Source of the DNA: Escherichia coli
GTDB taxonomy: Bacteria > Pseudomonadota > Gammaproteobacteria > Enterobacterales > Enterobacteriaceae
DNA length: 64,000 bases
NCBI RefSeq assembly: GCF_041886205.1
Contig: NZ_CP169029.1
Direction: 5' to 3' (one strand)
The position numbers and the translations under genes are program-made. The notes beneath the pieces are model-generated. The model saw nothing but the letters and a program-made list of their open reading frames with translations. It did not search any database and was not told where the DNA came from. Below, piece by piece: positions 21,882 through 55,552 of the stretch; position 1 is the first letter of the stretch; each line of letters begins with the position of its first letter.

Positions 21882-22595
21882 GTGAATCAACGTAATATGT
21901 CAATAATTAATTCCACGCCAGTGCGTGTTATTGCCATTGTAGGATGTGATGGTTCAGGTAAATCGACCCTCACGGCAAGCCTGGTAAATAAACTGGCAGC
22001 AAGAATGCCAACAGAACACATTTATCTCGGGCAATCGTCCGGGCGAATTGGCGAATGGATTTCACAGCTCCCTGTTATTGGCGCACCTTTTGGGCGTTAT
22101 TTGCGAAGTAAAGCGGCACATGTACACGAAAAGCCCTCAACACCGCCTGGCAATATTACTGCACTGGTTATCTATCTGCTTTCCTGCTGGCGGGCGTACA
22201 AGTTTCGCAAAATGTTGTGTAAAAGCCAGCAAGGCTATCTGCTCATCACCGACCGCTACCCGCAGGTTGAAGTGCCGGGTTTTCGCTTTGATGGCCCGCA
22301 ATTGGCAAAAACCACGGGCGGTAACGGTTGGATAAAAATGTTAAGGCAGCGCGAGTTGAAGCTGTACCAATGGATGGCGTCTTATTTACCCGTATTGTTG
22401 ATTCGTCTTGGCATTGATGAACAAACCGCGTTTGCGCGTAAACCTGACCACCAACTGGCAGCGTTACAGGAAAAAATCGCCGTTACGCCGCAACTGACGT
22501 TCAACGGTGCCAGGATCCTTGAACTGGATGGTCGGCAACCAGCCGATGAAATTCTGCAAGCGTCACTACGCGCAATTCACGCCGCGCTTTCCTGA
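21882..22595 (+). CDS. yghS: P-loop NTPase/kinase-like protein YghS (237 aa)
   Basis: Walker A IAIVGCDGSGKSTL. Contains DRYPQ and ARKPDH. Paralog of YghT and YghR. Confidence 0.88.
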   Translation: MNQRNMSIINSTPVRVIAIVGCDGSGKSTLTASLVNKLAARMPTEHIYLGQSSGRIGEWISQLPVIGAPFGRYLRSKAAHVHEKPSTPPGNITALVIYLLSCWRAYKFRKMLCKSQQGYLLITDRYPQVEVPGFRFDGPQLAKTTGGNGWIKMLRQRELKLYQWMASYLPVLLIRLGIDEQTAFARKPDHQLAALQEKIAVTPQLTFNGARILELDGRQPADEILQASLRAIHAALS

Positions 22596-22626: not shown

Positions 22627-23385
22627 ATGGATGCACTACAAACACAAACTGTTAATAGTACAACCGCGCCGCAGCCCAACTACATTCCGGGGCTGATTGC
22701 GGTGGTCGGGTGTGATGGCACCGGTAAATCCACACTGACCACTGACCTGGTGAAATCGCTGCAACAACACTGGCAAACTGAGCGGCGCTATCTGGGGCTG
22801 CTCTCCGGCGAAGACGGCGACAAAATCAAACGATTGCCGTTGGTTGGCGTCTGGCTGGAACGGCGACTGGCGGCCAAATCCTCGAAAACCCAAAGCATGA
22901 AAACCAAATCTCCGGCGCTATGGGCGGCGGTGATTATGTACTGCTTTTCGCTGCGAAGAATGGCGAATCTACGCAAGGTTCAGCGACTGGCGCAAAGTGG
23001 CGTTCTGGTGGTCAGCGATCGCTTCCCGCAGGCTGAAATTTCGGGCTTTTATTATGACGGACCGGGGATCGGCGTCGAACGTGCGACCGGGAAAATCAGC
23101 ATGTTTCTGGCGCAGCGCGAACGGCGTTTATACCAAAAAATGGCGCAATACCGTCCTGAATTAATCATTCGTTTGGGGATTGATATTGATACTGCCATCT
23201 CCCGCAAGCCTGACCATGACTATGCCGAGCTGCAGGACAAAATCGGCGTCATGTCGACGATTGGCTATAACGGCACAAAAATTCTTGAGATTGATGCCAG
23301 AGCGCCCTACAGCGAAGTGCTGGAACAGGCACAGAAGGCGGTTTCTCTGGTTGCCATCGTTTCTGACCGCCGAAGTTTAACTTAA
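22627..23385 (+). CDS. yghR: P-loop NTPase/kinase-like protein YghR (252 aa)
   Basis: Walker A IAVVGCDGTGKSTL. Contains DRFPQ and SRKPDH. Paralog of YghS and YghT. Confidence 0.88.
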   Translation: MDALQTQTVNSTTAPQPNYIPGLIAVVGCDGTGKSTLTTDLVKSLQQHWQTERRYLGLLSGEDGDKIKRLPLVGVWLERRLAAKSSKTQSMKTKSPALWAAVIMYCFSLRRMANLRKVQRLAQSGVLVVSDRFPQAEISGFYYDGPGIGVERATGKISMFLAQRERRLYQKMAQYRPELIIRLGIDIDTAISRKPDHDYAELQDKIGVMSTIGYNGTKILEIDARAPYSEVLEQAQKAVSLVAIVSDRRSLT

Positions 23386-23430: not shown

Positions 23431-24780
23431 TTGGCGGGTTTTAACATCAAACATTGGTTTGCAGATGGCGCGTTTCGCACCATTATTCGCAATAGCGCCT
23501 GGTTAGGCTCCAGTAATGTCGTGAGCGCCTTGCTGGGGCTGTTGGCGCTCTCGTGTGCCGGTAAAGGGATGACGCCCGCCATGTTTGGCGTACTGGTGAT
23601 TGTGCAATCGTACGCCAAGTCGATCAGCGATTTTATTAAGTTTCAGACATGGCAGTTGGTGGTGCAGTACGGAACGCCAGCCTTGACCAACAATAATCCG
23701 CAGCAATTTCGCAATGTCGTCTCATTTTCCTTCTCGCTGGATATCGTCAGCGGCGCGGTGGCGATTGTCGGCGGCATTGCCTTACTACCATTCCTTTCCC
23801 ATTCATTAGGTCTGGATGACCAAAGTTTTTGGCTGGCGGCGCTGTATTGCACGCTCATTCCTTCAATGGCTTCCTCCACGCCGACCGGCATTCTGCGTGC
23901 GGTAGATCGCTTCGATTTAATTGCTGTACAGCAGGCGACGAAACCTTTTCTGCGCGCAGCGGGGAGCGTCGTAGCCTGGTATTTTGACTTTGGTTTTGCG
24001 GGTTTTGTTATTGCCTGGTACGTGTCGAATCTGGTTGGCGGCACCATGTACTGGTGGTTTGCAGCGCGCGAATTACGCCGCAGAAATATCCATAATGCCT
24101 TCAAATTGAATCTGTTTGAGTCTGCCCGACACATCAAAGGCGCGTGGAGTTTTGTCTGGTCAACCAACATTGCCCACTCCATCTGGTCGGCGCGTAACTC
24201 GTGCAGCACAGTGCTGGTGGGGATCGTGTTAGGACCCGCTGCCGCCGGGTTATTTAAAATCGCCATGACATTCTTCGACGCCGCCGGAACGCCAGCGGGT
24301 TTGCTGGGTAAAAGTTTTTACCCAGAGGTGATGCGTTTAGATCCGCGCACCACCAGACCGTGGTTGTTAGGTGTGAAGTCCGGTTTACTGGCGGGCGGAA
24401 TCGGTATTCTGGTGGCGCTCGCGGTGTTGATCGCCGGCAAGTCGCTCATTTCGCTGGTGTTTGGCGTTAAGTATCTCGAAGCGTATGACCTGATTCAGGT
24501 GATGCTGGGCGCAATTGTGATTTCGATGCTGGGTTTCCCGCAGGAGTCATTGCTATTGATGGCGGGAAAACAGCGCGCTTTTCTCGTGGCGCAAACCATC
24601 GCCTCAATCGGCTACATCGTATTGCTGTTCATGTTCTGTCATCTGTTTGGTGTGCTGGGAGCAGCGTTTGCCTACTTCGGTGGGCAATGTCTGGATGTGG
24701 TGCTCTCGTTAATTCCAACTTTAAAGGCATTTTTTCAGCGTCATTCCTTGCTTTATAACGCAGCCGGAGAGAAATCCTGA
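23431..24780 (+). CDS. yghQ: Polytopic MOP/Wzx-like flippase-family membrane protein YghQ, full-length form (449 aa from a TTG start)
   Basis: About 12 hydrophobic segments throughout. The start is uncertain: TTG at 23431, with the next in-frame ATG in GKGMTPAMFG. Confidence 0.75.
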   Translation: MAGFNIKHWFADGAFRTIIRNSAWLGSSNVVSALLGLLALSCAGKGMTPAMFGVLVIVQSYAKSISDFIKFQTWQLVVQYGTPALTNNNPQQFRNVVSFSFSLDIVSGAVAIVGGIALLPFLSHSLGLDDQSFWLAALYCTLIPSMASSTPTGILRAVDRFDLIAVQQATKPFLRAAGSVVAWYFDFGFAGFVIAWYVSNLVGGTMYWWFAARELRRRNIHNAFKLNLFESARHIKGAWSFVWSTNIAHSIWSARNSCSTVLVGIVLGPAAAGLFKIAMTFFDAAGTPAGLLGKSFYPEVMRLDPRTTRPWLLGVKSGLLAGGIGILVALAVLIAGKSLISLVFGVKYLEAYDLIQVMLGAIVISMLGFPQESLLLMAGKQRAFLVAQTIASIGYIVLLFMFCHLFGVLGAAFAYFGGQCLDVVLSLIPTLKAFFQRHSLLYNAAGEKS

Positions 24781-25604
24781 TGATGAGAAAATATTTCCCG
24801 CTTGAGGCGAGCGAGCGTCTATTTGTTGCGATTGAGGAAGATGATGTCGTTGATGCCCAGGTCAGTTTGCCGCCGACTATTGCACTAAGTTGTACCACCG
24901 AAATCATCCATGATAATTACGCGTTATGCCTGCAGTTCTGGCTCAATGGCGTTAATCGTCAGGAGTTACTGCGTTTAATTCGCAAACAGACCAAAGGCGA
25001 TGAGCTGACGACAGACGAGCGCAAACAGTTTAAATACATGCGAGCGCGCTACAAGCATCTGCGTTTTGCGCAACGGCTATATTTAAAGAAGCATCAGGCC
25101 GGATTTTTATTCGGCAAAACGACCGTTTTTCTGGGGCGTTTTCAGGACGGCTTTCGTAACGGTAAGAAAAATATTGTGTCGTATTACGGTAACCTGTTAC
25201 GGATTTATTTAAGCTCTCCGGTCTGGTCGTTGGTGAACTATTCATTACGCCATAGCCAGTTAGAAAGCGTAAGCGGTTTTATTGCCTATCGGCAAAAGCA
25301 AATGCATGCCCTGAAAGAGATAATTGCCAAACCGCGACTAACCGGCAGGGAATTTCATGATGTGCGAAAAATCATCAGCCAGCAGGTTTCTTATTACGAC
25401 ACCTTAAGATCGCTTGATCCTGAAAATAAAGAGGCGTTACAGGTTTCCCGCTTCCTCGCCGCCATTAATGGCCTGATGGGGGATAAACACGACGACATGG
25501 TGGCGGATGATATGGAAAACCGCCAGTCGTATGATGCACCGGTGGCGCTGGATAGCGATATTCGCCAGCGCTTAGAGCTGCTGATTTCGCGTTTTCCGCT
25601 ATAA
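24780..25604 (+). CDS. Hypothetical soluble protein (274 aa), translationally coupled to yghQ
   Basis: Its ATG overlaps the yghQ TGA (TGATG). Basic and helical with no TM segments. I recognise no family. Confidence 0.6.
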   Translation: MMRKYFPLEASERLFVAIEEDDVVDAQVSLPPTIALSCTTEIIHDNYALCLQFWLNGVNRQELLRLIRKQTKGDELTTDERKQFKYMRARYKHLRFAQRLYLKKHQAGFLFGKTTVFLGRFQDGFRNGKKNIVSYYGNLLRIYLSSPVWSLVNYSLRHSQLESVSGFIAYRQKQMHALKEIIAKPRLTGREFHDVRKIISQQVSYYDTLRSLDPENKEALQVSRFLAAINGLMGDKHDDMVADDMENRQSYDAPVALDSDIRQRLELLISRFPL

Positions 25605-25612
25605 CCGGAGCA

Positions 25613-26176
25613 ATGATGTCATCTCGTTTGATTATTGCGCTGATTATCATGCTCTTAGCCCCGGGTGCGCAGGCACACAATTTCGTCACTGGCAAAACGG
25701 TTACCCCTGTTTATATTCAGGAAGGCGGCGAGCTGCTTCTGAATAGCGACGACGAAATTCACTACCAAAAGTGGAAAAGCACACAATTGGCGGGAAAAGT
25801 CCGCATTATTCAGTATATCGCCGGGCGTAAGTCGGCGAAGAAAAAGAACTCACTGTTAATTAAAGCGGTTGAAGCGGCAAACTTTCCGCAGGATCGTTTT
25901 CAGCCCACCACCATTGTGAACACCGATGATGCCATCTTTGGTACTGGCTATTTTGTTGTTGGCAAAATCGAAAAAAATAAACGCCGCTATCCGTGGGCGC
26001 AATTCGTTATTGACGGCAATGGACTGGGACGCATTGCCTGGCGCTTGCCGGAGCAGAGTTCAACCATTCTGGTGCTGAATAAAGCCGGGCAAATTCAGTG
26101 GGCAAAGGACGGCAGCCTGACGCCGGAAGAGGTAGATCATGTCATTGCGCTGGCGCAGAAGCTGATCAATGAATAA
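25613..26176 (+). CDS. YtfJ-like periplasmic protein with signal peptide (186-187 aa)
   Basis: Signal peptide MMSSRLIIALIIMLLAPGAQA/HN. The rest resembles the YtfJ family. The GGAG RBS favours the second ATG, at 25616. Confidence 0.7.
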   Translation: MMSSRLIIALIIMLLAPGAQAHNFVTGKTVTPVYIQEGGELLLNSDDEIHYQKWKSTQLAGKVRIIQYIAGRKSAKKKNSLLIKAVEAANFPQDRFQPTTIVNTDDAIFGTGYFVVGKIEKNKRRYPWAQFVIDGNGLGRIAWRLPEQSSTILVLNKAGQIQWAKDGSLTPEEVDHVIALAQKLINE

Positions 26177-26205
26177 AAATTCAAAGGATTGAGGGCGTTA
26201 GTGAG

Positions 26206-27276
26206 ATGAAGCTGGTTGAACACTACATCATGCGTGGTACGCGCCGTCTGGTGCTGATTATCGTCGGTTTTCTGATCTTTATTTTCGCCAGCTACTCCGC
26301 ACAGCGTTATCTGACCGAAGCGGCAAATGGGACATTAGCTCTTGATGTTGTGCTGGATATCGTTTTCTACAAAGTGCTGATTGCACTGGAGATGTTGTTA
26401 CCTGTTGGTCTGTATGTGTCAGTTGGCGTGACGCTAGGGCAGATGTATACCGACTCGGAAATTACCGCTATCTCTGCGGCGGGGGGCAGTCCGGGACGCT
26501 TGTACAAAGCCGTTCTTTATCTGGCGATACCGCTAAGTATTTTTGTCACCCTTCTGTCGATGTATGGTCGTCCGTGGGCTTATGCGCAGATTTATCAACT
26601 GGAGCAACAGTCGCAGTCGGAGCTGGATGTTCGCCAGTTGCGGGCAAAGAAATTTAACACTAACGATAACGGACGAATGATCCTTTCGCAGACGGTTGAT
26701 CAGGATAATAATCGCCTGACTGACGCGCTGATTTATACTTCTACTGCCAATCGAACCCGCATTTTCCGCGCCCGTTCGGTTGATGTGGTTGACCCATCAC
26801 CCGAGAAACCGACCGTTATGTTGCATAACGGGACCGCCTATCTTCTCGATCATCAGGGGCGTGACGACAACGAACAGATCTACCGTAATCTGCAATTACA
26901 TCTGAATCCGCTGGATCAAAGCCCTAACGTCAAACGCAAAGCAAAATCGGTCACGGAGCTGGCGCGCTCCGCCTTTCCTGCCGATCATGCCGAACTGCAA
27001 TGGCGACAAAGCCGTGGCCTGACAGCATTGTTGATGGCGCTGCTGGCCATTTCATTAAGTCGGGTAAAACTGCGGCAAGGGCGATTTTCAACATTATTGC
27101 CACTGACGTTGCTGTTTATTGCCATTTTTTATGGCGGCGACGTCTGCCGTACGCTGGTGGCTAACGGCGCGATTCCCCTCATTCCTGGTTTGTGGTTAGT
27201 ACCCGGACTCATGCTAATGGGCCTGCTGATGCTGGTCGCACGCGACTTCTCTTTGCTGCAGAAATTTTCCCGATGA
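26206..27276 (+). CDS. LptF/YjgP-family ABC-type permease paralog (356 aa)
   Basis: Three N-terminal TM segments, a ~150-aa periplasmic beta-rich insert and three C-terminal TM segments, which is the YjgP/YjgQ (LptF/LptG) topology. Confidence 0.75.
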   Translation: MKLVEHYIMRGTRRLVLIIVGFLIFIFASYSAQRYLTEAANGTLALDVVLDIVFYKVLIALEMLLPVGLYVSVGVTLGQMYTDSEITAISAAGGSPGRLYKAVLYLAIPLSIFVTLLSMYGRPWAYAQIYQLEQQSQSELDVRQLRAKKFNTNDNGRMILSQTVDQDNNRLTDALIYTSTANRTRIFRARSVDVVDPSPEKPTVMLHNGTAYLLDHQGRDDNEQIYRNLQLHLNPLDQSPNVKRKAKSVTELARSAFPADHAELQWRQSRGLTALLMALLAISLSRVKLRQGRFSTLLPLTLLFIAIFYGGDVCRTLVANGAIPLIPGLWLVPGLMLMGLLMLVARDFSLLQKFSR

Positions 27277-28352
27277 ATGTTTTCAGTCGCTATTTAATCC
27301 GTCATCTCTTTCTCGGTTTTGCCGCCGCCGCAGGGCTATTGCTGCCGCTTTTTACCACCTTCAACCTGATTAACGAACTGGATGATGTCAGCCCGGGCGG
27401 TTATCGCTGGACTCAGGCGGTGCTGGTGGTGCTAATGACCTTACCGCGCACACTGGTCGAACTTTCGCCATTTATCGCCTTATTGGGAGGGATTGTCGGC
27501 CTGGGGCAGTTATCGAAAAACAGTGAGCTTACCGCCATTCGCAGCATGGGGTTTTCTATCTTCCGTATTGCACTGGTGGCACTGGTTGCAGGGATATTGT
27601 GGACTGTTTCGTTAGGCGCGATAGATGAGTGGGTGGCGTCGCCATTGCAGCAACAGGCGTTGCAAATCAAATCGACCGCCACCGCGTTGGGGGAGGACGA
27701 TGACATTACCGGCAATATGCTGTGGGCCAGGCGTGGTAATGAATTTGTGACGGTGAAATCGCTGAACGAGCAGGGCCAGCCGGTGGGCGTGGAGATTTTT
27801 CATTATCGTGACGATCTCTCGCTCGAATCCTACATTTATGCACGCAGTGCCACCATTAAAGACGACAAAATGTGGATCCTGCATGGTGTGAATCATAAAA
27901 AATGGCTTAACGGTAAAGAAACGCTGGAAACATCAGATAATCTTGCCTGGCAATCTGCCTTCACCAGTATGGATCTTGAAGAGTTATCGATGCCGGGGAA
28001 TACTTTTTCTGTCTGTCAGCTTAATCATTACATCCATTATTTGCAGGAAACCGGGCAACCCAGCAGCGAATACCGCCTTGCACTGTGGGAAAAACTGGGG
28101 CAACCCATCCTGACCCTGGCGATGATTTTGCTGGCTGTACCGTTTACCTTTAGCGCCCCGCGCTCGCCAGGGATGGGTAGCCGTCTCGCTGTAGGCGTCA
28201 TCGTTGGCTTACTCACCTGGATCAGCTATCAAATCATGGTCAATCTGGGATTGCTATTTGCGTTAAGCGCACCTGTTACCGCGCTCGGTTTACCGATAGC
28301 GTTTGTGCTGGTGGCGTTGAGCCTGGTGTATTGGTATGACAGACAACATTAA
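27273..28352 (+). CDS. LptG/YjgQ-family ABC-type permease paralog (359 aa)
   Basis: Sits in ORF 27192..28352. The start MNVFSRYLIRHLFLGF at 27273 overlaps the upstream stop (ATGA). Same 3+3 TM topology with a central periplasmic domain. Confidence 0.75.
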   Translation: MNVFSRYLIRHLFLGFAAAAGLLLPLFTTFNLINELDDVSPGGYRWTQAVLVVLMTLPRTLVELSPFIALLGGIVGLGQLSKNSELTAIRSMGFSIFRIALVALVAGILWTVSLGAIDEWVASPLQQQALQIKSTATALGEDDDITGNMLWARRGNEFVTVKSLNEQGQPVGVEIFHYRDDLSLESYIYARSATIKDDKMWILHGVNHKKWLNGKETLETSDNLAWQSAFTSMDLEELSMPGNTFSVCQLNHYIHYLQETGQPSSEYRLALWEKLGQPILTLAMILLAVPFTFSAPRSPGMGSRLAVGVIVGLLTWISYQIMVNLGLLFALSAPVTALGLPIAFVLVALSLVYWYDRQH

Positions 28353-28353
28353 A

Positions 28354-28380
28354 CCCGCCGTGGCGCAACACCACGACGGG
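28354..28380. terminator. Hairpin in the 34-nt gap between the convergent operons
   Basis: CCCGCCGTGG (28354-28363), loop CGCAACA, CCACGACGGG (28371-28380). One mismatch and no strong T tract. Confidence 0.4.
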
Positions 28381-28386
28381 CTCACA

Positions 28387-29559
28387 TTACTGCTTCAGAG
28401 TAGCAAATGTCTGAATGATGGCATCGATTTGCTCACGACTGTGGGCAGCGTTTACGCTACAGCGCAGCAGCGTAATGCCCGCAGGCGCGGCAGGCGGCAG
28501 GATAAGATTCACATACACGCCCAGCGAGATAAGCTCGCGCCAGATGCGCAACCCTTCCTCTTTCGAACCGATTATTACCGGCACTACCGGGCTAATATGT
28601 GAACTTAACTCATAACCCAGTTTTTGCAGACCGTCATACAGATGGTTGGCGTTATCCATCAGCTTTTGCCGCAGCTCTGGTTGTGAGGCAATGGTTCTTA
28701 ACGATGAGCGCACGGTCGCAATGCAGGACGGAGAAGGAGAGGCGGTAAAAATATACGGGCGGCTGCCGTAGCGCAGCACTTCCATCGCTTCCGAACCGAC
28801 AGCAAAACCGCCAATCGAGGCCAGACTTTTACTGAAAGTACCAACGATAATATCCACATCATCTTCAACGCCGACAGCTTCAGCCAGTCCACGCCCCGTT
28901 GCACCTAACACGCCAAACGAATGCGCTTCATCGACAATCAAATAACCACCGAGACGACGTTTGATATCAACAATTTCCGCCAGCGGCGCAACGTCACCGA
29001 GCATGCTGTAGATGCCCTCAACGATGATAATCGCCTCTTTCGCCCGTTCACCGAGGCGAACCATGCGCCGTTCCAGATCTTTAGCATCGTTATGGCGGAA
29101 ACGAATAATTTCCGCGCCACCGAGAGAACAGGCGTCATAAATACTGGCGTGGCTGTCGGCATCCAGTAACACCACGGCGTTATGGTCGGCAAGTGCGCTG
29201 ATGACGCCTAAATTAGCGGTATAACCGGTTGAAAAAACGATAGCGGTAGGGCGATTGAAAAACTCGGCAATCTCTTTCTCTAACGCCAGGTGCGGCGCAT
29301 AACTGCCGTTTGCCATACGAGAACCGGTGGTGCCGGTGCCTTGGGCCGCTAACGCTGCCTGACCTTCGGCGATGGCATCATGATTAAAGGTTAAACCGAG
29401 ATAATTATTGGTCCCGGCCAGAATCACTTTTTTATTGCCGATCCGACCTTCGGTGGCGGAATACACTTCATCAATACAGGTGCCAAACGGTGTTAACCCG
29501 TTGTCACTAAATTGCAGTCGCTCGCCAGCAAGGCGCGCATATTTATCGTATAGCCCCAT
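28387..29559 (-). CDS. PLP-dependent alpha-oxoamine synthase, serine palmitoyltransferase-like (390 aa)
   Basis: AOS family (BioF/Kbl/SPT). The PLP-lysine motif GTFSKSLASIGGF is closest to the bacterial SPT-type GTFSKS signature. The start overlaps the ACP stop (TAATG). Confidence 0.85.
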   Translation of the reverse strand: MGLYDKYARLAGERLQFSDNGLTPFGTCIDEVYSATEGRIGNKKVILAGTNNYLGLTFNHDAIAEGQAALAAQGTGTTGSRMANGSYAPHLALEKEIAEFFNRPTAIVFSTGYTANLGVISALADHNAVVLLDADSHASIYDACSLGGAEIIRFRHNDAKDLERRMVRLGERAKEAIIIVEGIYSMLGDVAPLAEIVDIKRRLGGYLIVDEAHSFGVLGATGRGLAEAVGVEDDVDIIVGTFSKSLASIGGFAVGSEAMEVLRYGSRPYIFTASPSPSCIATVRSSLRTIASQPELRQKLMDNANHLYDGLQKLGYELSSHISPVVPVIIGSKEEGLRIWRELISLGVYVNLILPPAAPAGITLLRCSVNAAHSREQIDAIIQTFATLKQ

Positions 29560-29807
29560 TATTTATTCTCCAGCCATGGAAGTAGAGCTTCCATTAATTG
29601 CGCAGGGGTTTTGACATCCAGCAGAATATTAATAGGAATGGAAATATCGAATCTGTCTTCCAGCATCATTAAGAGATCCATCACTTTGATCGACTCCAGG
29701 CCAAGATCGTTGACGAGATCGCTGTCGGGCTTAATTTCCACACCGTTTTCGACCAAATCCTGTAAACAGGAAAGGATGTAATCCATTACTATTTCACGAT
29801 TTACCAT
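29559..29807 (-). CDS. Dedicated acyl carrier protein (82 aa)
   Basis: DLGLESIKVMDLLMMLE matches the ACP phosphopantetheine-attachment helix (DLGxDSLxxVEL) with the Ser retained. Small and acidic. Confidence 0.8.
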   Translation of the reverse strand: MVNREIVMDYILSCLQDLVENGVEIKPDSDLVNDLGLESIKVMDLLMMLEDRFDISIPINILLDVKTPAQLMEALLPWLENK

Positions 29808-29838
29808 AGAAACGTTAACACACCTTTAAACAAGACAA

Positions 29839-30753
29839 TCAAAATAGCCCGTTGCGTAATGCGTGTTCCAGGCTAATCCCGGGAAACCAATTAATATCTT
29901 CAGAAATACGGTTATTATTTGCCGACCAGTCGGCGTGGGTTAATTCACGAATTTTCGAGCGGGTCAGCATAGGTTCTTTACCTGCCAGGCGACTCAACGC
30001 AGTACTGATATCCGCAAGGCAGGTGAGTACCGGCAGAGGAATGCCAACCATCCGCACAGAACCACAACGGGCTTCGGCGGCAAGCTGTCGTACGCGTTGC
30101 CAGTCATAGCCGCCAGCGACGCCATCGCATAATTCATAGGTTTGCGTCTGTACAGTTTCGGCGCTTAACCACTGACCCACGGCTTGCGCGAAATCGGTGA
30201 CGTGCAGGAAAGAGAGCTGTGTATCTGGCGCACCAAGTCGTGGCAGCAGGCCGCGCAGCATCCAGTCAAACAGCGGTTTTAACTCTTTATCGCCTGGACC
30301 ATACACGGCTGTCGGGCGAAAAACGCCCAGCGTAATTTCATCAGCCATTGCAGTCAGCCGTTGTTCGGCGACGTGTTTGGAATTTGCGTACCAGGAGAGT
30401 TCGGGATGGCGCGCCGCCAGCGAAGAGATAAACAGAAAACGTTGGCAAAAGCCGCTCTCTTTTGCCGCTTGCATCAGGCGCAGGCTGCCGTCAACGTTAC
30501 AGCGGGTAAAAATCTCTTCTTTGTGCCCGCGCACTTGCCCGGCGCAATGGACCACCGCGCTGGCTCCGGCAACCAGTTCGCTAAGTGAATGAGTATCTTC
30601 CAGCGAACCGCGCACCCAGATGAGATTGTCATTGACGTGAGCGCGGGCAGTACGCGTCAATGCGCGAACGTGAAAGCCGCGGGCGAGCAGGTTATCGATA
30701 ATATATTTACCGATAAACCCGGTAGCGCCCGTCACCGCGACAGTTTGATTCAT
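29839..30753 (-). CDS. NAD(P)-dependent epimerase/dehydratase-family reductase (extended SDR, 304 aa)
   Basis: VTGATGFIGKYI Rossmann motif and YANSK (YxxxK) catalytic motif. The start overlaps the upstream stop (ATGA). Confidence 0.85.
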   Translation of the reverse strand: MNQTVAVTGATGFIGKYIIDNLLARGFHVRALTRTARAHVNDNLIWVRGSLEDTHSLSELVAGASAVVHCAGQVRGHKEEIFTRCNVDGSLRLMQAAKESGFCQRFLFISSLAARHPELSWYANSKHVAEQRLTAMADEITLGVFRPTAVYGPGDKELKPLFDWMLRGLLPRLGAPDTQLSFLHVTDFAQAVGQWLSAETVQTQTYELCDGVAGGYDWQRVRQLAAEARCGSVRMVGIPLPVLTCLADISTALSRLAGKEPMLTRSKIRELTHADWSANNNRISEDINWFPGISLEHALRNGLF

Positions 30754-32471
30754 GCCAGGGATTCCTGCACATGAAGGCTTTCAGCATAAGCCTTCTGATA
30801 ACGTTTTTTCGCTTCCGCATGGGCAGGCTTGCCGGAGGACGTTCGGGGAATACTGTGGGGCGGCAACAGATCGATAGCCGCGGTCACGCCAAATTCGCTT
30901 TGGATCCGTGCTGCCAGCGCGTGGATAAGCTGCCCGCGACGTTCTTCATCGCTGATCCGACACTGGATCTGCAAAATGATTTTTTCCTGGGCGGTAACAA
31001 AAGCAATCGCATCGCCAGAATGAATTTCCGGTTCCTGTTCCGCAATATATTCAATATCCTGCGGCCAGATATTACGGCCACGAATAATAATCAGATCTTT
31101 AATGCGTCCGGTGACATACAGATAACCGTCCAGCAGATAACCGAGGTCGCCGGTGTCTAACCAGCCCGTCGCGGCAATCTCGTCTTGCGAAGCCTGGTCG
31201 CCAAAGTAACCGCTCATCAGGCTAGGGCCGGAGATGCAAATATGGCCTACCACACGTTCCGCGACAGGTATACCTGCTTCATTGCGGATTTCAATGCCAT
31301 GTTCCGGCAACGCTTTACCGCAGTTGACGAAAGTCGATACGGCGCGTGTTTCAGCACCCGGCGCGACGGCTTTACCGTGGTATTCGAGGATGTCGCGATC
31401 CACTTCGTTAACCATAACCCCGGAGGTTTCATCAGAGAAGCTGACAGCCAGCGCATTTTCTGCCAGTCCGTAGCACGGCATGAAAGTTTTATCGTCAAAG
31501 TTAACCTGACGGAAACATTCAGCGAATTGATGGAGTTGTTCTGCGGAGATGGGTTCTGCACCAATACCAGCGACGCGCCAGGAGGAAAGATCCAGTTCTG
31601 CGAGATCTTTTTCATTCACGCGGCGCTGGCACAATTCATAGCCAAACGGCGGCGCAACGGAAACGGTGCCGCGATTTTTACTGATCAATTTAAGCCATTG
31701 CAGAGGACGCATGGCAAAATCCTGAGTGCGCAAATAATCTACTGAAAGCTGCGTGGCGACGGGGGTCAGGAGAAAGCCGACCAGTCCCATATCATGGTAG
31801 AAAGGCAGCCAGGAGACGCAGCGGTCGCCAGGGCGTAATTTAATGCCATCGTGGCTTATAGCACGTAGATTAGCCATCACTTCGCGATGGGTGATAATGA
31901 CGCCACGGGGAAAACGGGTGCTGCCGGAGGTGTATTGGAGGTAGGCGATATCGTCCGGAACTGGGCGCTGGAGCGCAACATCGGCTTCCGGTAATGCCTT
32001 AAACCAGGCGTGGCTTAAAACATGTAATTCGGGATTGTTATGCGTCGCAGCATTGACCAGCGGTAACCACTCATCACCAGTGATAATGGCTGCGGGCTGG
32101 CAACTTGCCAGTAAACCCTGCAGTTTGGCGCTCCAGGAATCCCGCTGACCGACGCCCATTGGAATCGCCAACGGGACGGCGACTAAGCCGGCATACTGGC
32201 AGGCAAAAAAAGCCTCTACGAACCCGCTACTGGTTTCGGCAATCAGCGCCACGCGATCGCCTTTTTTCAGGTTCAGCGATAACAACCGCTTCGCACCAGC
32301 TTCGGCACGCGCTTTTAACGTCTGATATTCCAGTTGATCTTCAAGTTGGCAACGTCTGTCATAAAAATTCATTCCATCGCTACTCAGAGCGGCGTAGTCC
32401 AAAGCATCAACCAGCGTTGGAAAATCGGCATAGCGCATAGGTAGGGAATGCGTAAAGATTTTATTAGACAT
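30750..32471 (-). CDS. Fatty acyl-AMP ligase / acyl-ACP synthetase-type adenylating enzyme (573 aa)
   Basis: Sits in ORF 30750..32498. Start MSNKIFTHSLPMRYADF at 32471. AMP-binding motif YLQYTSGSTRFPRGV. Overall FAAL-like layout. Confidence 0.85.
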   Translation of the reverse strand: MSNKIFTHSLPMRYADFPTLVDALDYAALSSDGMNFYDRRCQLEDQLEYQTLKARAEAGAKRLLSLNLKKGDRVALIAETSSGFVEAFFACQYAGLVAVPLAIPMGVGQRDSWSAKLQGLLASCQPAAIITGDEWLPLVNAATHNNPELHVLSHAWFKALPEADVALQRPVPDDIAYLQYTSGSTRFPRGVIITHREVMANLRAISHDGIKLRPGDRCVSWLPFYHDMGLVGFLLTPVATQLSVDYLRTQDFAMRPLQWLKLISKNRGTVSVAPPFGYELCQRRVNEKDLAELDLSSWRVAGIGAEPISAEQLHQFAECFRQVNFDDKTFMPCYGLAENALAVSFSDETSGVMVNEVDRDILEYHGKAVAPGAETRAVSTFVNCGKALPEHGIEIRNEAGIPVAERVVGHICISGPSLMSGYFGDQASQDEIAATGWLDTGDLGYLLDGYLYVTGRIKDLIIIRGRNIWPQDIEYIAEQEPEIHSGDAIAFVTAQEKIILQIQCRISDEERRGQLIHALAARIQSEFGVTAAIDLLPPHSIPRTSSGKPAHAEAKKRYQKAYAESLHVQESLA

Positions 32472-32842
32472 ATACACCACGAAAAAATTGGATATCAAAA
32501 ATAAAATGACAATAATGCGGTGGATTATATAGGCATAAAAGATAAATGAGATAGTATTTTCATCAGTGTGAAAATGAACATTGATTTATATAATGAGTTT
32601 GAGTTTTTTTGTTTTTATTGTGAATGATATTTAATTTATGAATATATTAAGAAGAAGCCTTGTCCGGTCGCCTTAAATCGACAAAAGGCATTGTGGCGCT
32701 TCTGTGTAGTCGCTGACCCTATCGTAATCATTAATAAATACTATTTATTCGTCGTTTGTATCCATTGGGTTGATTATTAAGGTGCCGTTCGTTGCTGTTG
32801 CAACCTGTTTGTCACCGTTAATTATTTGTTACCCACAGAACT

Positions 32843-33985
32843 ATGGAATGCGATCTGCTGATGATTAAAATTGAAAAAGTAATTAATAAAAATGACCTTA
32901 AGGCATTTATCGCTTTTCCGTCATCACTTTATCCCGACGATCCAAACTGGATACCCCCTTTATTCATTGAACGCAACGAGCATTTGTCTGCGAAAAATCC
33001 GGGGACGGACCATATCATCTGGCAGGCGTGGGTGGCAAAAAAAGCGGGGCAGATAGTTGGGCGTATTACCGCGCAAATAGATACCTTGCACCGCGAGCGT
33101 TACGGCAAAGATACCGGTCATTTCGGCATGATTGACGCCATTGATGATCCGCAGGTTTTTGCCGCGTTGTTTGGCGCAGCGGAAGCGTGGTTGAAGTCAC
33201 AAGGTGCAAGTAAGATCAGCGGTCCTTTCAGCCTGAATATCAATCAGGAAAGCGGATTACTGATTGAAGGTTTCGATACACCACCCTGTGCGATGATGCC
33301 GCACGGTAAACCGTGGTATGCCGCGCATATTGAACAATTGGGTTATCACAAAGGCATTGATTTACTGGCGTGGTGGATGCAGCGAACCGATCTCACTTTC
33401 TCTCCGGCGCTAAAAAAACTGATGGATCAGGTGCGTAAGAAGGTGACCATTCGCTGCATCAATCGCCAGCGGTTTGCCGAAGAGATGCAGATCCTGCGTG
33501 AGATTTTCAACTCTGGCTGGCAGCACAACTGGGGATTTGTGCCGTTTACCGAACATGAATTCGCGACCATGGGCGATCAACTTAAATATCTGGTGCCGGA
33601 CGATATGATCTACATCGCTGAGATTGATTCTGCACCCTGCGCGTTTATTGTCGGCTTGCCAAACATCAACGAGGCGATTGCCGATCTGAACGGATCGCTC
33701 TTTCCCTTCGGCTGGGCAAAATTGCTGTGGCGTTTGAAAGTCAGCGGTGTGCGAACTGCGCGAGTGCCGCTGATGGGCGTGCGGGACGAGTATCAGTTCA
33801 GCCGCATCGGCCCGGTGATTGCGCTGTTATTGATTGAAGCCTTACGCGATCCGTTTGCCCGCCGGAAGATCGATGCGCTGGAGATGTCATGGCTCCTCGA
33901 AACCAATACAGGCATGAATAACATGCTGGAACGCATTGGGGCAGAGCCGTACAAGCGTTACCGATTGTATGAAAAGCAAATTTAA
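32843..33985 (+). CDS. yghO: GNAT-like N-acyltransferase YghO, intact (374-380 aa)
   Basis: Recognised as YghO. The alternative start MIKIEKVINK is at 32861. Divergent from the FAAL operon across an AT-rich region. Confidence 0.8.
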   Translation: MECDLLMIKIEKVINKNDLKAFIAFPSSLYPDDPNWIPPLFIERNEHLSAKNPGTDHIIWQAWVAKKAGQIVGRITAQIDTLHRERYGKDTGHFGMIDAIDDPQVFAALFGAAEAWLKSQGASKISGPFSLNINQESGLLIEGFDTPPCAMMPHGKPWYAAHIEQLGYHKGIDLLAWWMQRTDLTFSPALKKLMDQVRKKVTIRCINRQRFAEEMQILREIFNSGWQHNWGFVPFTEHEFATMGDQLKYLVPDDMIYIAEIDSAPCAFIVGLPNINEAIADLNGSLFPFGWAKLLWRLKVSGVRTARVPLMGVRDEYQFSRIGPVIALLLIEALRDPFARRKIDALEMSWLLETNTGMNNMLERIGAEPYKRYRLYEKQI

Positions 33986-34061
33986 TACCAGATCCTGTTA
34001 AGCGCAGGGGCGGTCCCATCGCCCCTCGGGGAAAGGGTTAGGGTGAGGGGGAAAACTCTGC

Positions 34062-34832
34062 TCACATTCCCACCTTGTTCATCTCCAGCGGCACCGCCGA
34101 GCGAATCAAATGGTGGCCTTCCAGCTCGATATCGTGGAGATTCTTTTTCACGGTCCGCACATGATCGCGTGCTGCGCGCTGGGCGACGTGCGGCAGCCGC
34201 TGCAACACCGCGTTGTAGATCCGCGCATGCTGGCGATCGATCTGCTTTTTTTGCTGTGGTCGATGGTAGAGATTATTTACGCTGGCAAACACTGAATTAA
34301 ACATCAGATCGGTCAATGATTGCAGCGTAAACACCAGCACCTGATTGTGAGAAGCCTGACAAATGGCGAGATGGAAAGCGTGATCCAACTGAGCATGTTC
34401 GATCAGCGAAATCTCTTTGTTGTTCTCACTGGCGGCGAGCATTTTTTCATAACAGCGGGTTATCACAACAAAATCAGCCTGGGTTCCCAGCGTTGCCGCA
34501 AGCCTTGCCGATTCGCCCTCCAGCAATGCGCGAACGTCGAGCAGATCGTACAGCGTTCGCGGCTGCGTGCTGAACAGATGAATTAGCGGGCTGGTGTCCT
34601 GCACCCGATTAAGCCGTGCGACACGAGAATCGCGACCCTGCGCTGTTTCAATAATCCCGCGCCCGCGCAGCACGGTCAGTCCTTCACGCAGTGCGGAGCG
34701 TGAGAAGCCGAGCTTTTCACACAGTCGACGTTCCGAGGGAAGCGGCTGACCGACCTTCAGTACGCCGTCGATAATTAACCGTTCGATACTCTCTGCAACC
34801 ACTTCGCAAATAGGGCGACGTTCATCTTTCAT
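34062..34832 (-). CDS. glcC: GntR/FadR-family glycolate regulator GlcC
   Basis: Sits in ORF 34062..34901. Start MKDERRPICEVVAESIERLIIDGVLKVGQPLPSER at 34832, recognised as GlcC. Confidence 0.93.
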   Translation of the reverse strand: MKDERRPICEVVAESIERLIIDGVLKVGQPLPSERRLCEKLGFSRSALREGLTVLRGRGIIETAQGRDSRVARLNRVQDTSPLIHLFSTQPRTLYDLLDVRALLEGESARLAATLGTQADFVVITRCYEKMLAASENNKEISLIEHAQLDHAFHLAICQASHNQVLVFTLQSLTDLMFNSVFASVNNLYHRPQQKKQIDRQHARIYNAVLQRLPHVAQRAARDHVRTVKKNLHDIELEGHHLIRSAVPLEMNKVGM

Positions 34833-43919: not shown

Positions 43920-45416
43920 ATGGAAGAAAACACAAGGCAGCGTACAGAAAATTATATTTCAGCAAAAAACCAGCATCCCGCCTGGATACTCCTTGCCACT
44001 CGCCGTGCTCCACTGGTATTGAGTTGCCTGAAAACGCTTTTTGAAAAATCACATGATGGCATTCCCCTTGAGGAAGCTATTCAGTCTCTTTCCAGTATTC
44101 TCATTGAGCATGTGAGTCAGGAACAGTATGACATTAATCAGGACAATCCATTTCTTCAGGCCAGTCGTGAACTGCGGGAGTGGATTAAACGCCGTTTAAT
44201 TGTCGAACGGGATGGCCGTATTTTTGCTACCGATGCGCTTGAGGTCGCGATTACGTTTGTAGAGTCTCTGGATAATCGTTTTATGACCTCTACGGCTTCC
44301 CGTTTGTCCACCGTTCAGCGAGAAATTGAAAACCTGGAAACACGGCTTAATCCTAACCCGGCAAACCGGGTTGCAACCTTACGTCGTCGTATTTCTGAAC
44401 TGGAACGCGAACTACAGGAGGCAGAAGCCGGGCATATTGAGGTGCTGGAAACGCACCAGGCGGTTGAGCATATTCGTGAGGTCTACAATTTAGCTTCCAG
44501 CCTGCGGGCTGACTTTCGTCGTGTTGAAGACTCCTGGCGTGAGGCTGACCGCGCTCTTCGCCAATCCATTATTGGTGAGCAATATCATCGCGGCGATATA
44601 GTAGAACGCCTGCTCAACGATCAGGACGCGCTGCTTAATACGCCGGAAGGAAGAGTTTTCGACAGCTTTCAGCAACAGCTCCGTCAATCTTCTGAACTTA
44701 AAGCGATGAGTGAACGATTACGTGTGATCCTTAGCCATCCTTCTGCTTCTGATGCGCTTAACCGTCTACAGCGTCACGATCTGCGCTGGCTGGTTAAACG
44801 TCTGGTCGATGAATCGCAAACTGTCCTCCAGGCTCGCGCCCGTAGCGAGCGTGATGTCCGTGGTTTCATGAAAACCGGTCTTGCTGCTGAACATCATCGT
44901 GTTGGTCATTTGCTTAATGAGTTTCTGAATCTGGCGTTAAAACTCGACTGGCAGCGCCAGATGATTCGTAAACAAGAGGTGCCGCTACCTGCCGTTGGTG
45001 TGGCGGTAACAGGCATCCCCGCTATTGAACGTTTACGTTTTAAAGAGGTGGATGATGAAGCAGAGCAGACGTTGGATCTCAGTAATCATGCGGCGGATTT
45101 AACGCAGATTGGCGATGATTTCTGGGATGCCTTCAATGGCCTCGATCGTGAGGTGTTGATTCAGCAGACGTTGCAGCTTCTTGCAAAAGAAAATCGCCCC
45201 GTTGGCCTGGCTGAACTGGCGGCGCTGTTACCCCCGGCTCACGATCTCGAAACATTCGCCGTCTGGATTGGTATGGCAAGAGAAGCGGGTATTGAGGTTA
45301 TTGATTCACAGCGTGAATTTGCAGAGCTTAGTGATGGGGAAGGTCGCCGCTGGCGATTTAATCTGCCCACCACCGGTCTGGAAAGTCAGGCATTAATGGA
45401 TATCGATTGGGAGTAA
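43920..45416 (+). CDS. jetA: Wadjet JetA (DUF3375-like, kleisin-like subunit, 498 aa)
   Basis: First gene of a 4-gene coupled operon. Helical protein of matching size, in the position of JetA/MksF-like DUF3375 proteins. Confidence 0.8.
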   Translation: MEENTRQRTENYISAKNQHPAWILLATRRAPLVLSCLKTLFEKSHDGIPLEEAIQSLSSILIEHVSQEQYDINQDNPFLQASRELREWIKRRLIVERDGRIFATDALEVAITFVESLDNRFMTSTASRLSTVQREIENLETRLNPNPANRVATLRRRISELERELQEAEAGHIEVLETHQAVEHIREVYNLASSLRADFRRVEDSWREADRALRQSIIGEQYHRGDIVERLLNDQDALLNTPEGRVFDSFQQQLRQSSELKAMSERLRVILSHPSASDALNRLQRHDLRWLVKRLVDESQTVLQARARSERDVRGFMKTGLAAEHHRVGHLLNEFLNLALKLDWQRQMIRKQEVPLPAVGVAVTGIPAIERLRFKEVDDEAEQTLDLSNHAADLTQIGDDFWDAFNGLDREVLIQQTLQLLAKENRPVGLAELAALLPPAHDLETFAVWIGMAREAGIEVIDSQREFAELSDGEGRRWRFNLPTTGLESQALMDIDWE

Positions 45417-45421
45417 CAGGT

Positions 45422-46171
45422 ATGACGGGCTTTTTTGACAGGCTGATTAACCGGAGCGTTACCGCAAATGCAGGCTGTGAACCAGAACCATCGGATGAGG
45501 AGGTTACCGATGAGTCGGTTGAAGAAAGTTTGGCCAGTAGTGAAACGCGGACGCTAAAAAAAATACGTGAAGCGACTCAGGAATTGCTCAAATACGGCCT
45601 GCTGGAAGAGGCCAGTAAGCCCAATCTGTACCGCATCGTACTGAGCCATCCTGAAGAGGTTACTCGTATTCTGGAGCCTCTCGATCTGGATATCGGCATT
45701 GATGAGATCCGTGGCCTGCTGTATGTCAAAGTCAGGCTTGATGAAACGCCTGCGCAGGATGAATGGGCCCACCCTCTGGTGAGGCGGCAACGACTAAACC
45801 TGGAACAATCTTTATTAGTTGCCATACTGCGCCAACATTTTGTGGCCTGGGAGCAGGAAAGCGGAACCGGTGCCAGTCAGGCACAGATCGCCATCGATGA
45901 TCTTCTCCCTCAACTCCAGATTTATCTTGGCGACCCGGGCAGTGAATCAAAAGAACGCACCCGATTGCTTACCCTGCTGGATCAATTAAAGGGGCATGGG
46001 CTGGTGACGTCGCCGGATGCACATGAGCGGATCGTCATCCGTCCGATCATTGCTCATCTTGCCGATCCGATCAATCTTCAGGCATTACTGGCATGGCTGC
46101 GAGAGCAAATTGCCCAGCAAACCTCTCCAAATGACGCGCGAGAAAAGGATAGCAGCGAGGAGGACGTATGA
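45422..46171 (+). CDS. jetB: Wadjet JetB (DUF4194-like, MksE/KITE-like subunit, 249 aa)
   Basis: Sits in ORF 45407..46171. ATG at 45422, 8 nt after a GGAG. Acidic N- and C-terminal tails (EPEPSDEEVTDESVEESL, DSSEEDV). Ends in an ATGA overlap with jetC. Confidence 0.8.
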   Translation: MTGFFDRLINRSVTANAGCEPEPSDEEVTDESVEESLASSETRTLKKIREATQELLKYGLLEEASKPNLYRIVLSHPEEVTRILEPLDLDIGIDEIRGLLYVKVRLDETPAQDEWAHPLVRRQRLNLEQSLLVAILRQHFVAWEQESGTGASQAQIAIDDLLPQLQIYLGDPGSESKERTRLLTLLDQLKGHGLVTSPDAHERIVIRPIIAHLADPINLQALLAWLREQIAQQTSPNDAREKDSSEEDV

Positions 46172-49100
46172 ATCAGGTATCTGGCCTGGCTGGAAAGGAA
46201 TCTTTCATTCTTACCCGTATTGAGTTGTTCAACTGGGGCGGTTTTCATGGATTGCATCAGGCAGCAATCCATCAGGATGGTACCGCCGTTATTGGCCCAA
46301 CCGGGAGCGGAAAAACAACGTTGGTCGATGCCCTGATGACTCTGCTTTGTGCCAATCCTCGCTACAATCTGGCCTCAACTGGCGGGCATGAAAGCGACAG
46401 GGATCTTATCTCTTACGTCCGCGGCGTATCCGGTCCTGGCGATGGCGGTGAAGGGCAATCGCATATTGCCAGACCAGGTAAAACCGTGACAGGTATTGCT
46501 GCTACGCTGGAGCGCGAAGGAAAACAGGTCCGTCTGGGGGCGTTATTGTGGTTTGATTCCACCAGTTCCAGCGTGACGGATATGAAAAGGCTCTGGCTGT
46601 TCAGCGATAATCCCGGGCAGACGCTGGAGCATTGGCTAAACGTTTACCATGAGGGAGGTACACGTTTGCTCCGACAGATGGAAAAAGAAGCCATCGGGCT
46701 CTGGACATACCCGAATAAAAAGCAGTATCTGGCGCGCCTGCGGGATTTCTTCGAGGTGGGGGAAAACGCGTTTACGTTGTTAAACCGGGCGGCAGGGTTA
46801 AAACAACTCAACAGTATTGATGAGATTTTTCGCGAGCTGGTGTTAGACGATCACTCCGCCTTTGATCGCGCGGCTGAAGTGGCCAATAGTTTTGATGGTC
46901 TGACTGAGATTCATCAGGAACTGGAAACCGCTCGCAAACAACAGCAGTCTTTACAACCTGTCGCCCTGAGCTGGGAGAAGTACCAAAAGCAAGAGCGTCA
47001 ACTGGCTGACTGGCAGACGCTGGAATCGCTGTTACCCCTCTGGTTTGCACAACAGGCAAACCACCTCTGGCGGGAAAAGATTAACCTTCTTAACGCAAGG
47101 CTCGCTGAGGCACAAACCAGCGAAGAACAGCTCCAGTCACAGCTTGATTTGCAAAAAAAGGTGGTTAGCGACTGTATGCAGCGTTATCTCCAGGTCGGCG
47201 GTGCCAATATTGATGAACTGAACGAGCGTATCAAGGACTGGCAAAAAACGCTCGGCAGTCGAGAGGCATTGGCGCGTCAATATCAACAGCTGACCCGTAA
47301 CCTTGGATTGCCGTCTGATCTGATCCAACCACAGCTGGAGGCGAATCAGCATGAAGCCGCGGCCCTATGTGAGCAGATCGCCGTTGATATAAAGTTGAAA
47401 CAGGAAGAAGCGTATCAAAAAGGTGCGCTTAGCCATCACATTACCGAAGAGCTTCGGGAACGGGAAAATGAACGCGCCGAGATCGCGCGTCGTCCGGATT
47501 CTAACCTTCCCGCACATTATCAGGCGTTTCGTAGCGAGCTGGCAAAAGCGTTGAACGTGGATGAGTCTGAACTGCCTTTCGTCGCTGAACTGATACAGGT
47601 TAAACCGGAAGAGGCGCAATGGCGCGGTGCGATTGAGCGTGCTGTCGGGAGTAACAGGCTGCGTATTCTGGTTGCGCCTGAATCGGCACAGGAAGCGCTG
47701 CGCTGGGTAAATCAGCGCAACAACCGTCTGCATGTGCGGCTACTGGAGGTCAAATTACCGCACTCTCCCGCCCGGTTCTTCGACGATGGCTTTACCCGCA
47801 AGCTGTTGTGGAAAGATCATCCGTGGCGAGAGGCCGTCAAAGCATTACTGGCCGAAAGCGACAGGCATTGTGTTGACAGCCCTGAACAACTGCGTGACAC
47901 GCCTCATGCTATGACGGTGCAGGGATTAATGTCTGGTAAACAGCGTTTTTATGACAAGCATGATCAGAAACGCCTTGATGAAGACTGGCTGACGGGATTC
48001 GATAACCGCGATCGCCTGAACTTCCTTGCTAAAGAAATTACCACGCTTCAGGAGCAGGTTAAAACCGCAAACGCGGCATTTGAGTTTGCGAAAGGCGAGG
48101 TGGGGATTTTGCAAAATCAGGCTGCTTCCTTCCAGAAAATAGAACAAATTGATTTCGATAGCATCGATGTTCCCGGCGCGAAGAGCCAACTGGACGCGCT
48201 CAGGGAGCGGCTGGAAAATCTGACCCGCCCGGATTCTGACGCCAGTGTAGCGAAAGCAAAACTTGATGAGGCTCAAACGGTTGAATCTGAACTCGATAAG
48301 CAGCTCAGAGCTGCCAATAAAGTCACTAACGTGCTGGATACAGAACTCACATCAGCCCGTGCCGCGGAACGTAAGGCCCAGCAAACTGCACAACAAGGTA
48401 TGAAGGAAGAAGAGCGAGAGTTGTGCGCGTCACATTTTCCAGTGGTGACTTTGGAGCAATTGCCTGACATTCGCGATTTAGAACGTCAACATGAGCGGGG
48501 AATTCAGCATGAAATTGAAAGAGTTAAAGCTGAACTACATCGACTGAACATTGAGTTGACCAAACGTATGTCTGAAGCCAAACGTGTGGATACCGGGGCG
48601 CTCGTTGAGGCAGGGACTGATTTGGACGATATTACTGTTTATTTACAGCGTTTGCAGGAACTGACCGAAGAAGCCCTGCCGGAAAAGCTCAATCGCTTCC
48701 TTGATTATCTTAACCGTTCATCCGATGACGGCGTAACACAACTGCTTAGCCATATTGAGCATGAGGTGCTGGTGATTGAGGAGCGCCTCAATGAACTCAA
48801 TGAAACTATGTTCAGGGTTGATTTTCAGCCGTATCGCTACCTGCGTCTGGATACCAAAAAAGTTGTCCATGAAAGCCTGCGCACGCTTGAAAAAGCACAG
48901 CGTCAGCTAAATGCCGCCCGATTTGTTGATGATAATGGCGAGAGCCATTATAAGGCTTTGCAGATACTGGTGGCGCAATTGCGGGATGCTTGTGAACGAA
49001 ACCGTACCCTGGGAGCAAAAGCGCTACTGGATCCCCGTTTTCGACTGGAGTTCGCCGTATCGGTGATGGATCGTCAGAGCGGAAATGTGATTGAGTCTCG

Positions 49101-49455: not shown

Positions 49456-49456
49456 G

Positions 49457-53319: not shown

Positions 53320-53330
53320 GTTGTTTCTGG

Positions 53331-54193: not shown

Positions 54194-54239
54194 CTTAAGT
54201 TCTCTGTAACTGGTAGTGCTAAAGGTGAGAGCTTCGGGG

Positions 54240-55537: not shown

Positions 55538-55552
55538 TGTCCCTGCCTCCAT

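Follow-up and report, generated by a model that had tools for sequence, protein, structure and literature searches.

A probable dihydroceramide biosynthesis locus widespread in Escherichia coli and deleted from K-12

The five genes between 28387 and 33985 of the 64,000 nt stretch of Escherichia coli DNA analysed here (the window, with coordinates counted from its first letter) very probably constitute the E. coli locus for biosynthesis of dihydroceramide, the sphingolipid core, and are orthologous to aasR, cerR, acpR, spt and bcerS of Caulobacter. The ceramide-pathway reading is already known: Padilla-Gomez et al. 2022 (PMC9386255) put it forward for E. coli BL21(DE3) and demonstrated it in part. 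In RefSeq, spt is already annotated. An initial annotation of the window, made from the sequence by itself, arrived at the same ceramide-like pathway, for which we find support, but described it as cryptic, which publication in 2022 and the RefSeq annotation contradict. New here are the distribution of the locus among genomes, a map of the deletion in K-12, a 13-gene neighbourhood, the putative CHAD fold of the neighbouring protein orf274 and the lack of homologues of the Caulobacter head-group genes.

Genes were identified from the cutoffs of curated Pfam and NCBIfam models, from sequence comparison with the PDB and from comparison with the BL21(DE3) and Caulobacter genes (Table 1). Four lie together on the minus strand and encode a fatty acyl-AMP ligase (FAAL), an extended short-chain dehydrogenase/reductase (SDR), an acyl carrier protein (ACP) as well as an oxoamine synthase; the fifth, yghO, is divergent. 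Because the Pfam and NCBIfam matches are overwhelming, including Aminotran_1_2 at 2e-51 for the oxoamine synthase and AMP-binding at 6e-60 for the FAAL, the open reading frames (ORFs) of the four-gene operon represent real genes rather than chance ORFs. All five ORFs and every motif quoted in the initial annotation were recovered where it had placed them: YTSGSTRFPRGV in the FAAL (31899-31934), GATGFIG (30709-30729) and YANSK (30376-30390, residues 122-126) in the SDR, DLGLESI (29688-29708) in the ACP and the pyridoxal phosphate (PLP) motif GTFSKSLASIGGF in the oxoamine synthase (28804-28842), which includes Lys244. The longest FAAL ORF spans 30750-32498 with a TTG at 32498, and the RefSeq start is at 32438. 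The operon had also been described as translationally coupled, which holds for ACP and spt (1 nt overlap, TAATG) and for FAAL and SDR (4 nt overlap) but not for SDR and ACP, which are 31 nt apart. The GC content of the divergent gap upstream of yghO is approximately 0.42 compared with approximately 0.52 in its flanks. At the opposite end of the operon, a hairpin occupies the 34 nt gap between the lptG2 and spt stop codons, where a bidirectional terminator is plausible; the total of terminator-like sites in the scanned region, 28300-34100, is not above shuffle expectation.

Table 1. Coordinates of the ceramide genes, their conserved neighbours and related features. Positions refer to the window, except for the DgkA-type genes, which are numbered within the loci of the species named.
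Feature	Coordinates	Strand	Remarks
yghT, paralogue of yghR and yghS	21016..21708	-	linkage to the cluster kept in Serratia, Erwinia and Sodalis
yghS, yghR paralogue	21882..22595	+	
yghR, thymidylate-kinase-like P-loop protein	22627..23385	+	Walker A, DRYPQ, RKPDH; 44% identical to YghS
yghQ, MOP-superfamily flippase	23431..24780	+	full length (truncated in K-12); Pfam Polysacc_synt 3e-10
orf274, putative CHAD-fold protein	24780..25604	+	274 aa; Enterobacterales-restricted family
YtfJ-family protein	25616..26176	+	Pfam PF09695 4e-59; signal-like hydrophobic residues 1-19; kept in the cluster across genera
lptF2, second LptF-type permease	26206..27276	+	TIGR04407 314.3 bits
lptG2, second LptG-type permease	27273..28352	+	Pfam LptF_LptG 2.7e-69; TIGR04408 305.6 bits; linkage to the cluster kept in Serratia and Sodalis
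Hairpin, terminator-like	28350..28384	-	16-bp stem; between convergent lptG2 and spt stop codons
spt, serine palmitoyltransferase	28387..29559	-	390 aa; PLP Lys244 in GTFSKS
acpR, dedicated acyl carrier protein	29559..29807	-	82 aa; Ser39 in DLGLESI
cerR-like extended SDR reductase	29839..30753	-	304 aa; Pfam Epimerase 3e-23; Y122-x3-K126
aasR / EcFAAL, fatty acyl-AMP ligase	30750..32438	-	562 aa, RefSeq start
Divergent intergenic region	32439..32842	.	404 bp, AT-rich; presumed promoters of operon and yghO
yghO, bacterial ceramide synthase (bCerS/Aca) orthologue	32843..33985	+	380 aa
DgkA-type gene, Serratia liquefaciens	L006 11354-11716		
DgkA-type gene, Erwinia billingiae	L008 11323-11682		
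DgkA-type gene, Sodalis	L016 17823-18182		

The oxoamine synthase passes the NCBIfam equivalog model for serine palmitoyltransferase (SPT), NF047599, at 599.7 bits (cutoff 500), while the competing models all fall below their cutoffs (bioF, 333.8 against 426; Kbl, 296 against 460; CqsA-type, 221 against 428; ALAS, 217 against 338). SPT structures also rank first in the PDB, with 375 bits for the Sphingomonas enzymes (2jg2/2x8u) and 265 for that of Sphingobacterium (Bacteroidetes), ahead of cysteate acyltransferase (203), Kbl (approximately 200), BioF (approximately 180), ALAS (157-170) and CqsA (125). By this ranking the protein groups with characterised SPTs and not with BioF, Kbl, ALAS or CqsA, in agreement with the SPT-type assignment made initially from its PLP motif. 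The best solved relatives are the SPTs of Sphingomonas paucimobilis and S. wittichii (PDB 2JG2, 2X8U), with which the catalytic residues are common: in the alignment to 2jg2, the equivalents of Lys265 (PLP), Asp231, His234 and Arg390 are all kept, and the equivalent of Arg378 is Leu. This Leu was considered as a hint of a different amino-acid substrate and rejected, since a Caulobacter-type SPT also has Leu at this position and the replacement is therefore not diagnostic. The initial annotation had held that the amino-acid substrate could not be read from the sequence; for the BL21 orthologue it has been determined as L-serine (PMC9386255). There, SPT_Ec incorporates L-[14C]serine and prefers palmitoyl-AcpR over palmitoyl-CoA, and its product co-migrates with 3-oxo-sphinganine in thin-layer chromatography (TLC). 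The window Spt differs from this enzyme (ECD_02854) at 4 of 390 residues, and E. coli genomes in RefSeq label the gene 'spt: serine palmitoyltransferase'. The introduction of the same paper names E. coli B strains among the carriers of rhodobacterial SPTs, a tree grouping it credits to earlier reviews (Geiger et al. 2010, 2019, via PMC9386255).

The FAAL passes the FAAL-specific model NF006624 (869.7 bits, cutoff 600) and is the same protein as the E. coli FAAL whose crystal structure is PDB 3PBK (Zhang et al. 2011, via PMC8460268), which it matches over all 562 residues with 1248.8 bits and approximately 97% identity; 17 of the 562 residues differ from the BL21 orthologue. EcFAAL refuses CoA and acylates stand-alone holo-EcACP in vitro (PMC8460268), and AasR_Ec is functional with AcpR_Ec in vivo (PMC9386255). 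AcpR is a small PP-binding protein (PF00550, 9e-14) with a conserved Ser39, encoded directly upstream of spt with the TAATG overlap. It differs from BL21 ECD_02853 at one of 82 residues, and the BL21 protein carries 4'-phosphopantetheine (PMC9386255). The SDR contains both the GxxGxxG Rossmann motif (GATGFIG) and the catalytic pair Y122-K126, and its top PDB relatives are one NAD-dependent epimerase/dehydratase and NDUFA9 subunits; published identity to Caulobacter CC_1164 (CerR) is 34% with E 7e-38 (PMC9386255). Ten of its 304 residues differ from the BL21 orthologue. One of the inner residues of its YxxxK motif is polymorphic between strains, being YANSK (N124) in the window and YAKSK (K124) in BL21(DE3).

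For YghO, the Caulobacter counterpart was retrieved via a published primer (bcerS, positions 2150-3304 of locus L003). YghO and bCerS of Caulobacter vibrioides (CCNA_01212 / CC_1154) share 44% identity and 62% positives over 380 aa with E 3e-113, a value with which the published identity table agrees (PMC9386255), and one of 380 residues differs between the window protein and BL21 ECD_02850. The initial annotation had called YghO GNAT-like and divergently transcribed. The divergent 380 aa ORF is plain, and the GNAT assignment comes from weak PF00583 matches in 13 of 24 close YghO homologues (best E 2.3e-5) and in Caulobacter bCerS (E 0.029); Pfam and NCBIfam searches with the window YghO itself gave no match. 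Nothing was obtained from hhalign of its N- and C-terminal halves, in which a double-GNAT duplication was sought, and a PDB sequence search with YghO gave no meaningful match.

These assignments converge on the locus described in BL21(DE3), where ECD_02850 (yghO, 'aca'), 02851 (aasR), 02852 (epi), 02853 (acpR) and 02854 (spt) were recognised as Caulobacter ceramide orthologues (PMC9386255). Gene order is the same in the window, and the five proteins are 97-99.7% identical to their BL21 orthologues (0.3-3% differences). The correspondence with the Caulobacter ceramide gene set that the initial annotation had pointed to is borne out by the identities of YghO to bCerS and of the SDR to CC_1164, and by the FAAL being EcFAAL. 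Published experiments with near-identical E. coli proteins show that AasR/EcFAAL adenylates a free fatty acid and loads it onto the 4'-phosphopantetheine arm of AcpR rather than CoA, and that Spt combines acyl-AcpR with L-serine to give 3-oxo-sphinganine with loss of CO2. Together AasR_Ec, AcpR_Ec and SPT_Ec produced 3-oxo-sphinganine in vivo, and sphinganine- and ceramide-like spots also seen in BL21 were credited to chromosomal ECD_02852 and ECD_02850 (PMC9386255). By orthology, the NDUFA9-like SDR (CerR) would reduce the 3-keto group and YghO (bCerS) would attach the amide-linked acyl chain; which of N-acylation and 3-keto reduction comes first is disputed between two Caulobacter groups. 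PMC11413220, which describes sphingosine dependent on SPT in Enterobacter hormaechei, proved unusable here, its 'SPT homologues' being generic BLASTP matches and its effects less than 2-fold.

The locus had been thought accessory but is not rare. Of 5426 complete E. coli genomes, 4067 cover at least 80% of the 5.6 kb five-gene stretch, and 4063 (75%) cover at least 80% of an 8.4 kb segment that K-12 lacks. Where present it is single-copy, chromosomal, 95-99% identical and intact. K-12 MG1655 lacks window positions 24500-32882 (8.4 kb) and has an IS5 (insH9) at the junction (NC_000913.3 3130146-3131340); K-12 lost the locus through this IS5-associated deletion. It cuts short yghQ, in which similarity ends at window position 24499, and costs yghO its first 40 nt. 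The K-12 yghQ (truncated) and yghO (5' end replaced) are thus deletion stumps, and yghR, yghS and yghT are orphaned there.

Several observations count against a ceramide pathway operating in E. coli. Under the conditions used, empty-vector BL21 makes no sphingolipid, 3-oxo-sphinganine included, and the BL21 products were assigned by TLC co-migration (PMC9386255). The literature reports no sphingolipid from unmodified E. coli, and the promoter part of our scan of 28300-34100 found no enrichment over shuffles. The activities of YghO and the SDR in E. coli are inferred from orthology, and the GNAT fold of YghO stays unconfirmed by an AlphaFold2 (AF2) model that is too poor for a fold search, with a predicted local distance difference test (pLDDT) of 55.8 from a shallow alignment whose members are all at least 79% identical. 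For the adjacent genes, roles in decoration and export are suggested by synteny. The locus appears silent in laboratory culture, and an alternative that we judge unlikely, though not negligible, is that the enzymes are correctly identified but represent an evolutionary relic in E. coli, without meaningful expression or any lipid in nature. The empty-vector result fits such a relic, as do the normal growth of K-12 without 8.4 kb of the locus and the AT-rich divergent promoter region, a kind of DNA that is usually silenced in E. coli and may be silenced here. Intact ORFs throughout 75% of complete genomes at 95-99% identity speak against decay, and the persistence of 13 genes together through rearrangements in other genera argues for selection. 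In addition, BL21 fed 3-oxo-sphinganine gives ceramide- and sphinganine-like spots, which implies that chromosomal cerR and yghO are expressed.

Pairs of a FAAL and a stand-alone ACP usually prime lipopeptide or polyketide pathways, and the product could in principle be a metabolite of that type, or an amino-ketone made from glycine or alanine, instead of a sphingolipid. The FAAL literature itself handles EcFAAL without a link to sphingolipid synthesis, and the word 'sphingolipid' is absent from PMC8460268. This alternative is very improbable given that the operon has no non-ribosomal peptide synthetase or polyketide synthase gene beside it in the window, that the SPT model is passed while the competing models fail, and that the BL21 enzyme puts L-[14C]serine into a 3-oxo-sphinganine-like product. 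That YghO is unrelated to the operon, acting as a protein lysine acetyltransferase or as the 'putative DNA-binding transcriptional regulator YghO' of older K-12 annotation, is hardly credible, for although it was a GNAT candidate in a lysine-acetyltransferase screen (reportedly without being among the acetyltransferases found), it has 44% full-length identity to the genetically defined bCerS, adjoins the operon in every genus examined and yielded no DNA-binding domain in a Pfam/NCBIfam-type domain search.

Beyond the dihydroceramide core, the genes from yghT to lptG2 accompany the five ceramide genes in other Enterobacterales. All 13 are present in Serratia proteamaculans and Sodalis, in orders that differ from E. 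coli and from each other, and the loci of Serratia liquefaciens and Erwinia billingiae, which are shorter, contain the same genes throughout their extent in the Serratia order. Because they are retained together despite rearrangement, the 13 genes may be argued to form one functional unit. We tentatively propose, with less than even confidence, that the five ceramide genes are the core of a 13-gene Enterobacterales island that would make a sphingolipid whose head group is phosphorylated, possibly an oligophosphate, and unlike that of Caulobacter, with a dedicated LptF2G2 exporting this lipid to the outer membrane; yghO, yghQ, yghR, yghS and yghT of K-12 would be the stumps of the island. From the conserved neighbourhood, the products of adjacent genes would decorate and flip the ceramide and take it to the outer membrane, the candidates being the kinase-like YghT, YghS and YghR, orf274 with its putative CHAD fold, the YtfJ-like protein, the YghQ flippase and LptF2/LptG2.

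YghR, YghS and YghT are 34-44% identical to each other and all contain the Walker A, DRYPQ and RKPDH motifs, with weak similarity to thymidylate kinase. Two carry the RefSeq name 'dTMP kinase', given on scores of 25-31 bits where the cutoff is 83. A role as lipid or head-group kinases seems more likely than one in nucleotide metabolism because the genes accompany the spt operon in other genera. They were also considered as homologues of the ceramide kinase CpgB and rejected, as CpgB is of the LCB5/DAG-kinase type and has no similarity to these P-loop proteins. A DgkA-type gene (DAGK_prokar, 119-120 aa) lies directly downstream of yghO in Serratia liquefaciens, Erwinia billingiae and Sodalis, and none is found there in E. 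coli. In vitro, ceramide is a substrate for phosphorylation by E. coli DgkA, a hint that ceramide-1-phosphate is formed. The likeness of orf274 to CHAD polyphosphate-binding domains (PDB 6QV5, 3E0S, 6RN5; PMC6537752) is marginal by sequence, with one of 34 family members matching Pfam CHAD (E 0.0033), and marginal by Foldseek (E 0.13). LptF2 as a recent duplicate of the housekeeping protein was rejected at 29% identity to K-12 LptF. In RefSeq the two permease genes bear the unqualified names 'lptF' and 'lptG', yet they are distantly paralogous to the essential pair, and no LptB or LptC (LptC2-type) gene was seen alongside them in the E. coli locus. Nothing meaningful came from searching PDB sequences with YghR or with the YtfJ-like protein. 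Reports of yghQ variants in chlorhexidine-adapted K-12 (PMC8170033) and of yghQ-T knockouts in a silkworm screen (PMC9278758) are uninformative on the cluster.

Elsewhere in the window, glcA is followed downstream by four consecutive plus-strand ORFs of 498, 254, 1095 and 394 aa (43920-50605), annotated in the matching RefSeq genome as DUF3375, DUF4194, SbcC/MukB-like and DUF3322. We take their layout to be that of JetABCD (Wadjet) anti-plasmid systems. The third ORF is intact in the window and split into fragments by RefSeq. From approximately 52000 to 61000, after the Wadjet-like genes, the annotation of the matching genome lists insertion sequence debris (IS1, IS3/IS911, IS30 and ISKpn26-type IS5) and truncated genes.

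Membrane lipid biology uses E. coli as its reference organism and teaches that it has no sphingolipids. Three quarters of sequenced strains nonetheless hold an intact ceramide pathway that K-12 has lost. This core fact has been published and demonstrated in part, so that the finding in its stated form contributes little, and the remaining interest lies in the native product, the conditions of expression and the accessory genes. Should the 13-gene island function as proposed, most E. coli strains could remodel their outer membrane with a sphingolipid, and delivery by LptF2G2 could affect tolerance to detergent, bile and polymyxin as well as host recognition. The link to the pathway also gives the unexplained K-12 genes yghO, yghQ, yghR, yghS and yghT a testable context.

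Among known systems, ECD_02850-ECD_02854 of BL21(DE3) is the same locus in another strain, with strain-level polymorphisms only. The Caulobacter crescentus set comprises AasR (CC_1165), CerR (CC_1164), AcpR (CC_1163), Spt (CC_1162) and bCerS/Aca (CC_1154) (PMC9386255, PMC11087976, PMC11324152), and the same five protein families correspond one-to-one in E. coli, with the acpR-spt operon structure common to both. Native lipid production is established in Caulobacter but not in E. coli, and E. coli does not appear among the seven genera given in the figure legend of a survey that compared such clusters in 2024. The Caulobacter head-group genes CC_1152, CC_1153 and CC_1157-1161 (including the ceramide kinase CpgB, CC_1160) have no E. 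coli homologue; in tblastn and tblastx comparisons of the window with Caulobacter loci spanning these genes, only bcerS, lptF2, lptG2 and spt match. Since no Caulobacter head-group homologue occurs in the window, the final lipid of the E. coli locus probably differs from the ceramide-phosphoglycerate of Caulobacter. In place of these genes E. coli has YghR, YghS and YghT, the putative CHAD-fold protein and the YtfJ-like protein. The Caulobacter cluster also has a second LptF/LptG pair nearby, with LptG2 beside bcerS, and a putative flippase, and the E. coli locus likewise has LptF2/LptG2. By synteny and fold, the accessory genes in E. coli suggest a head group that is phosphorylated and export of the Lpt type, differing from those of Caulobacter.

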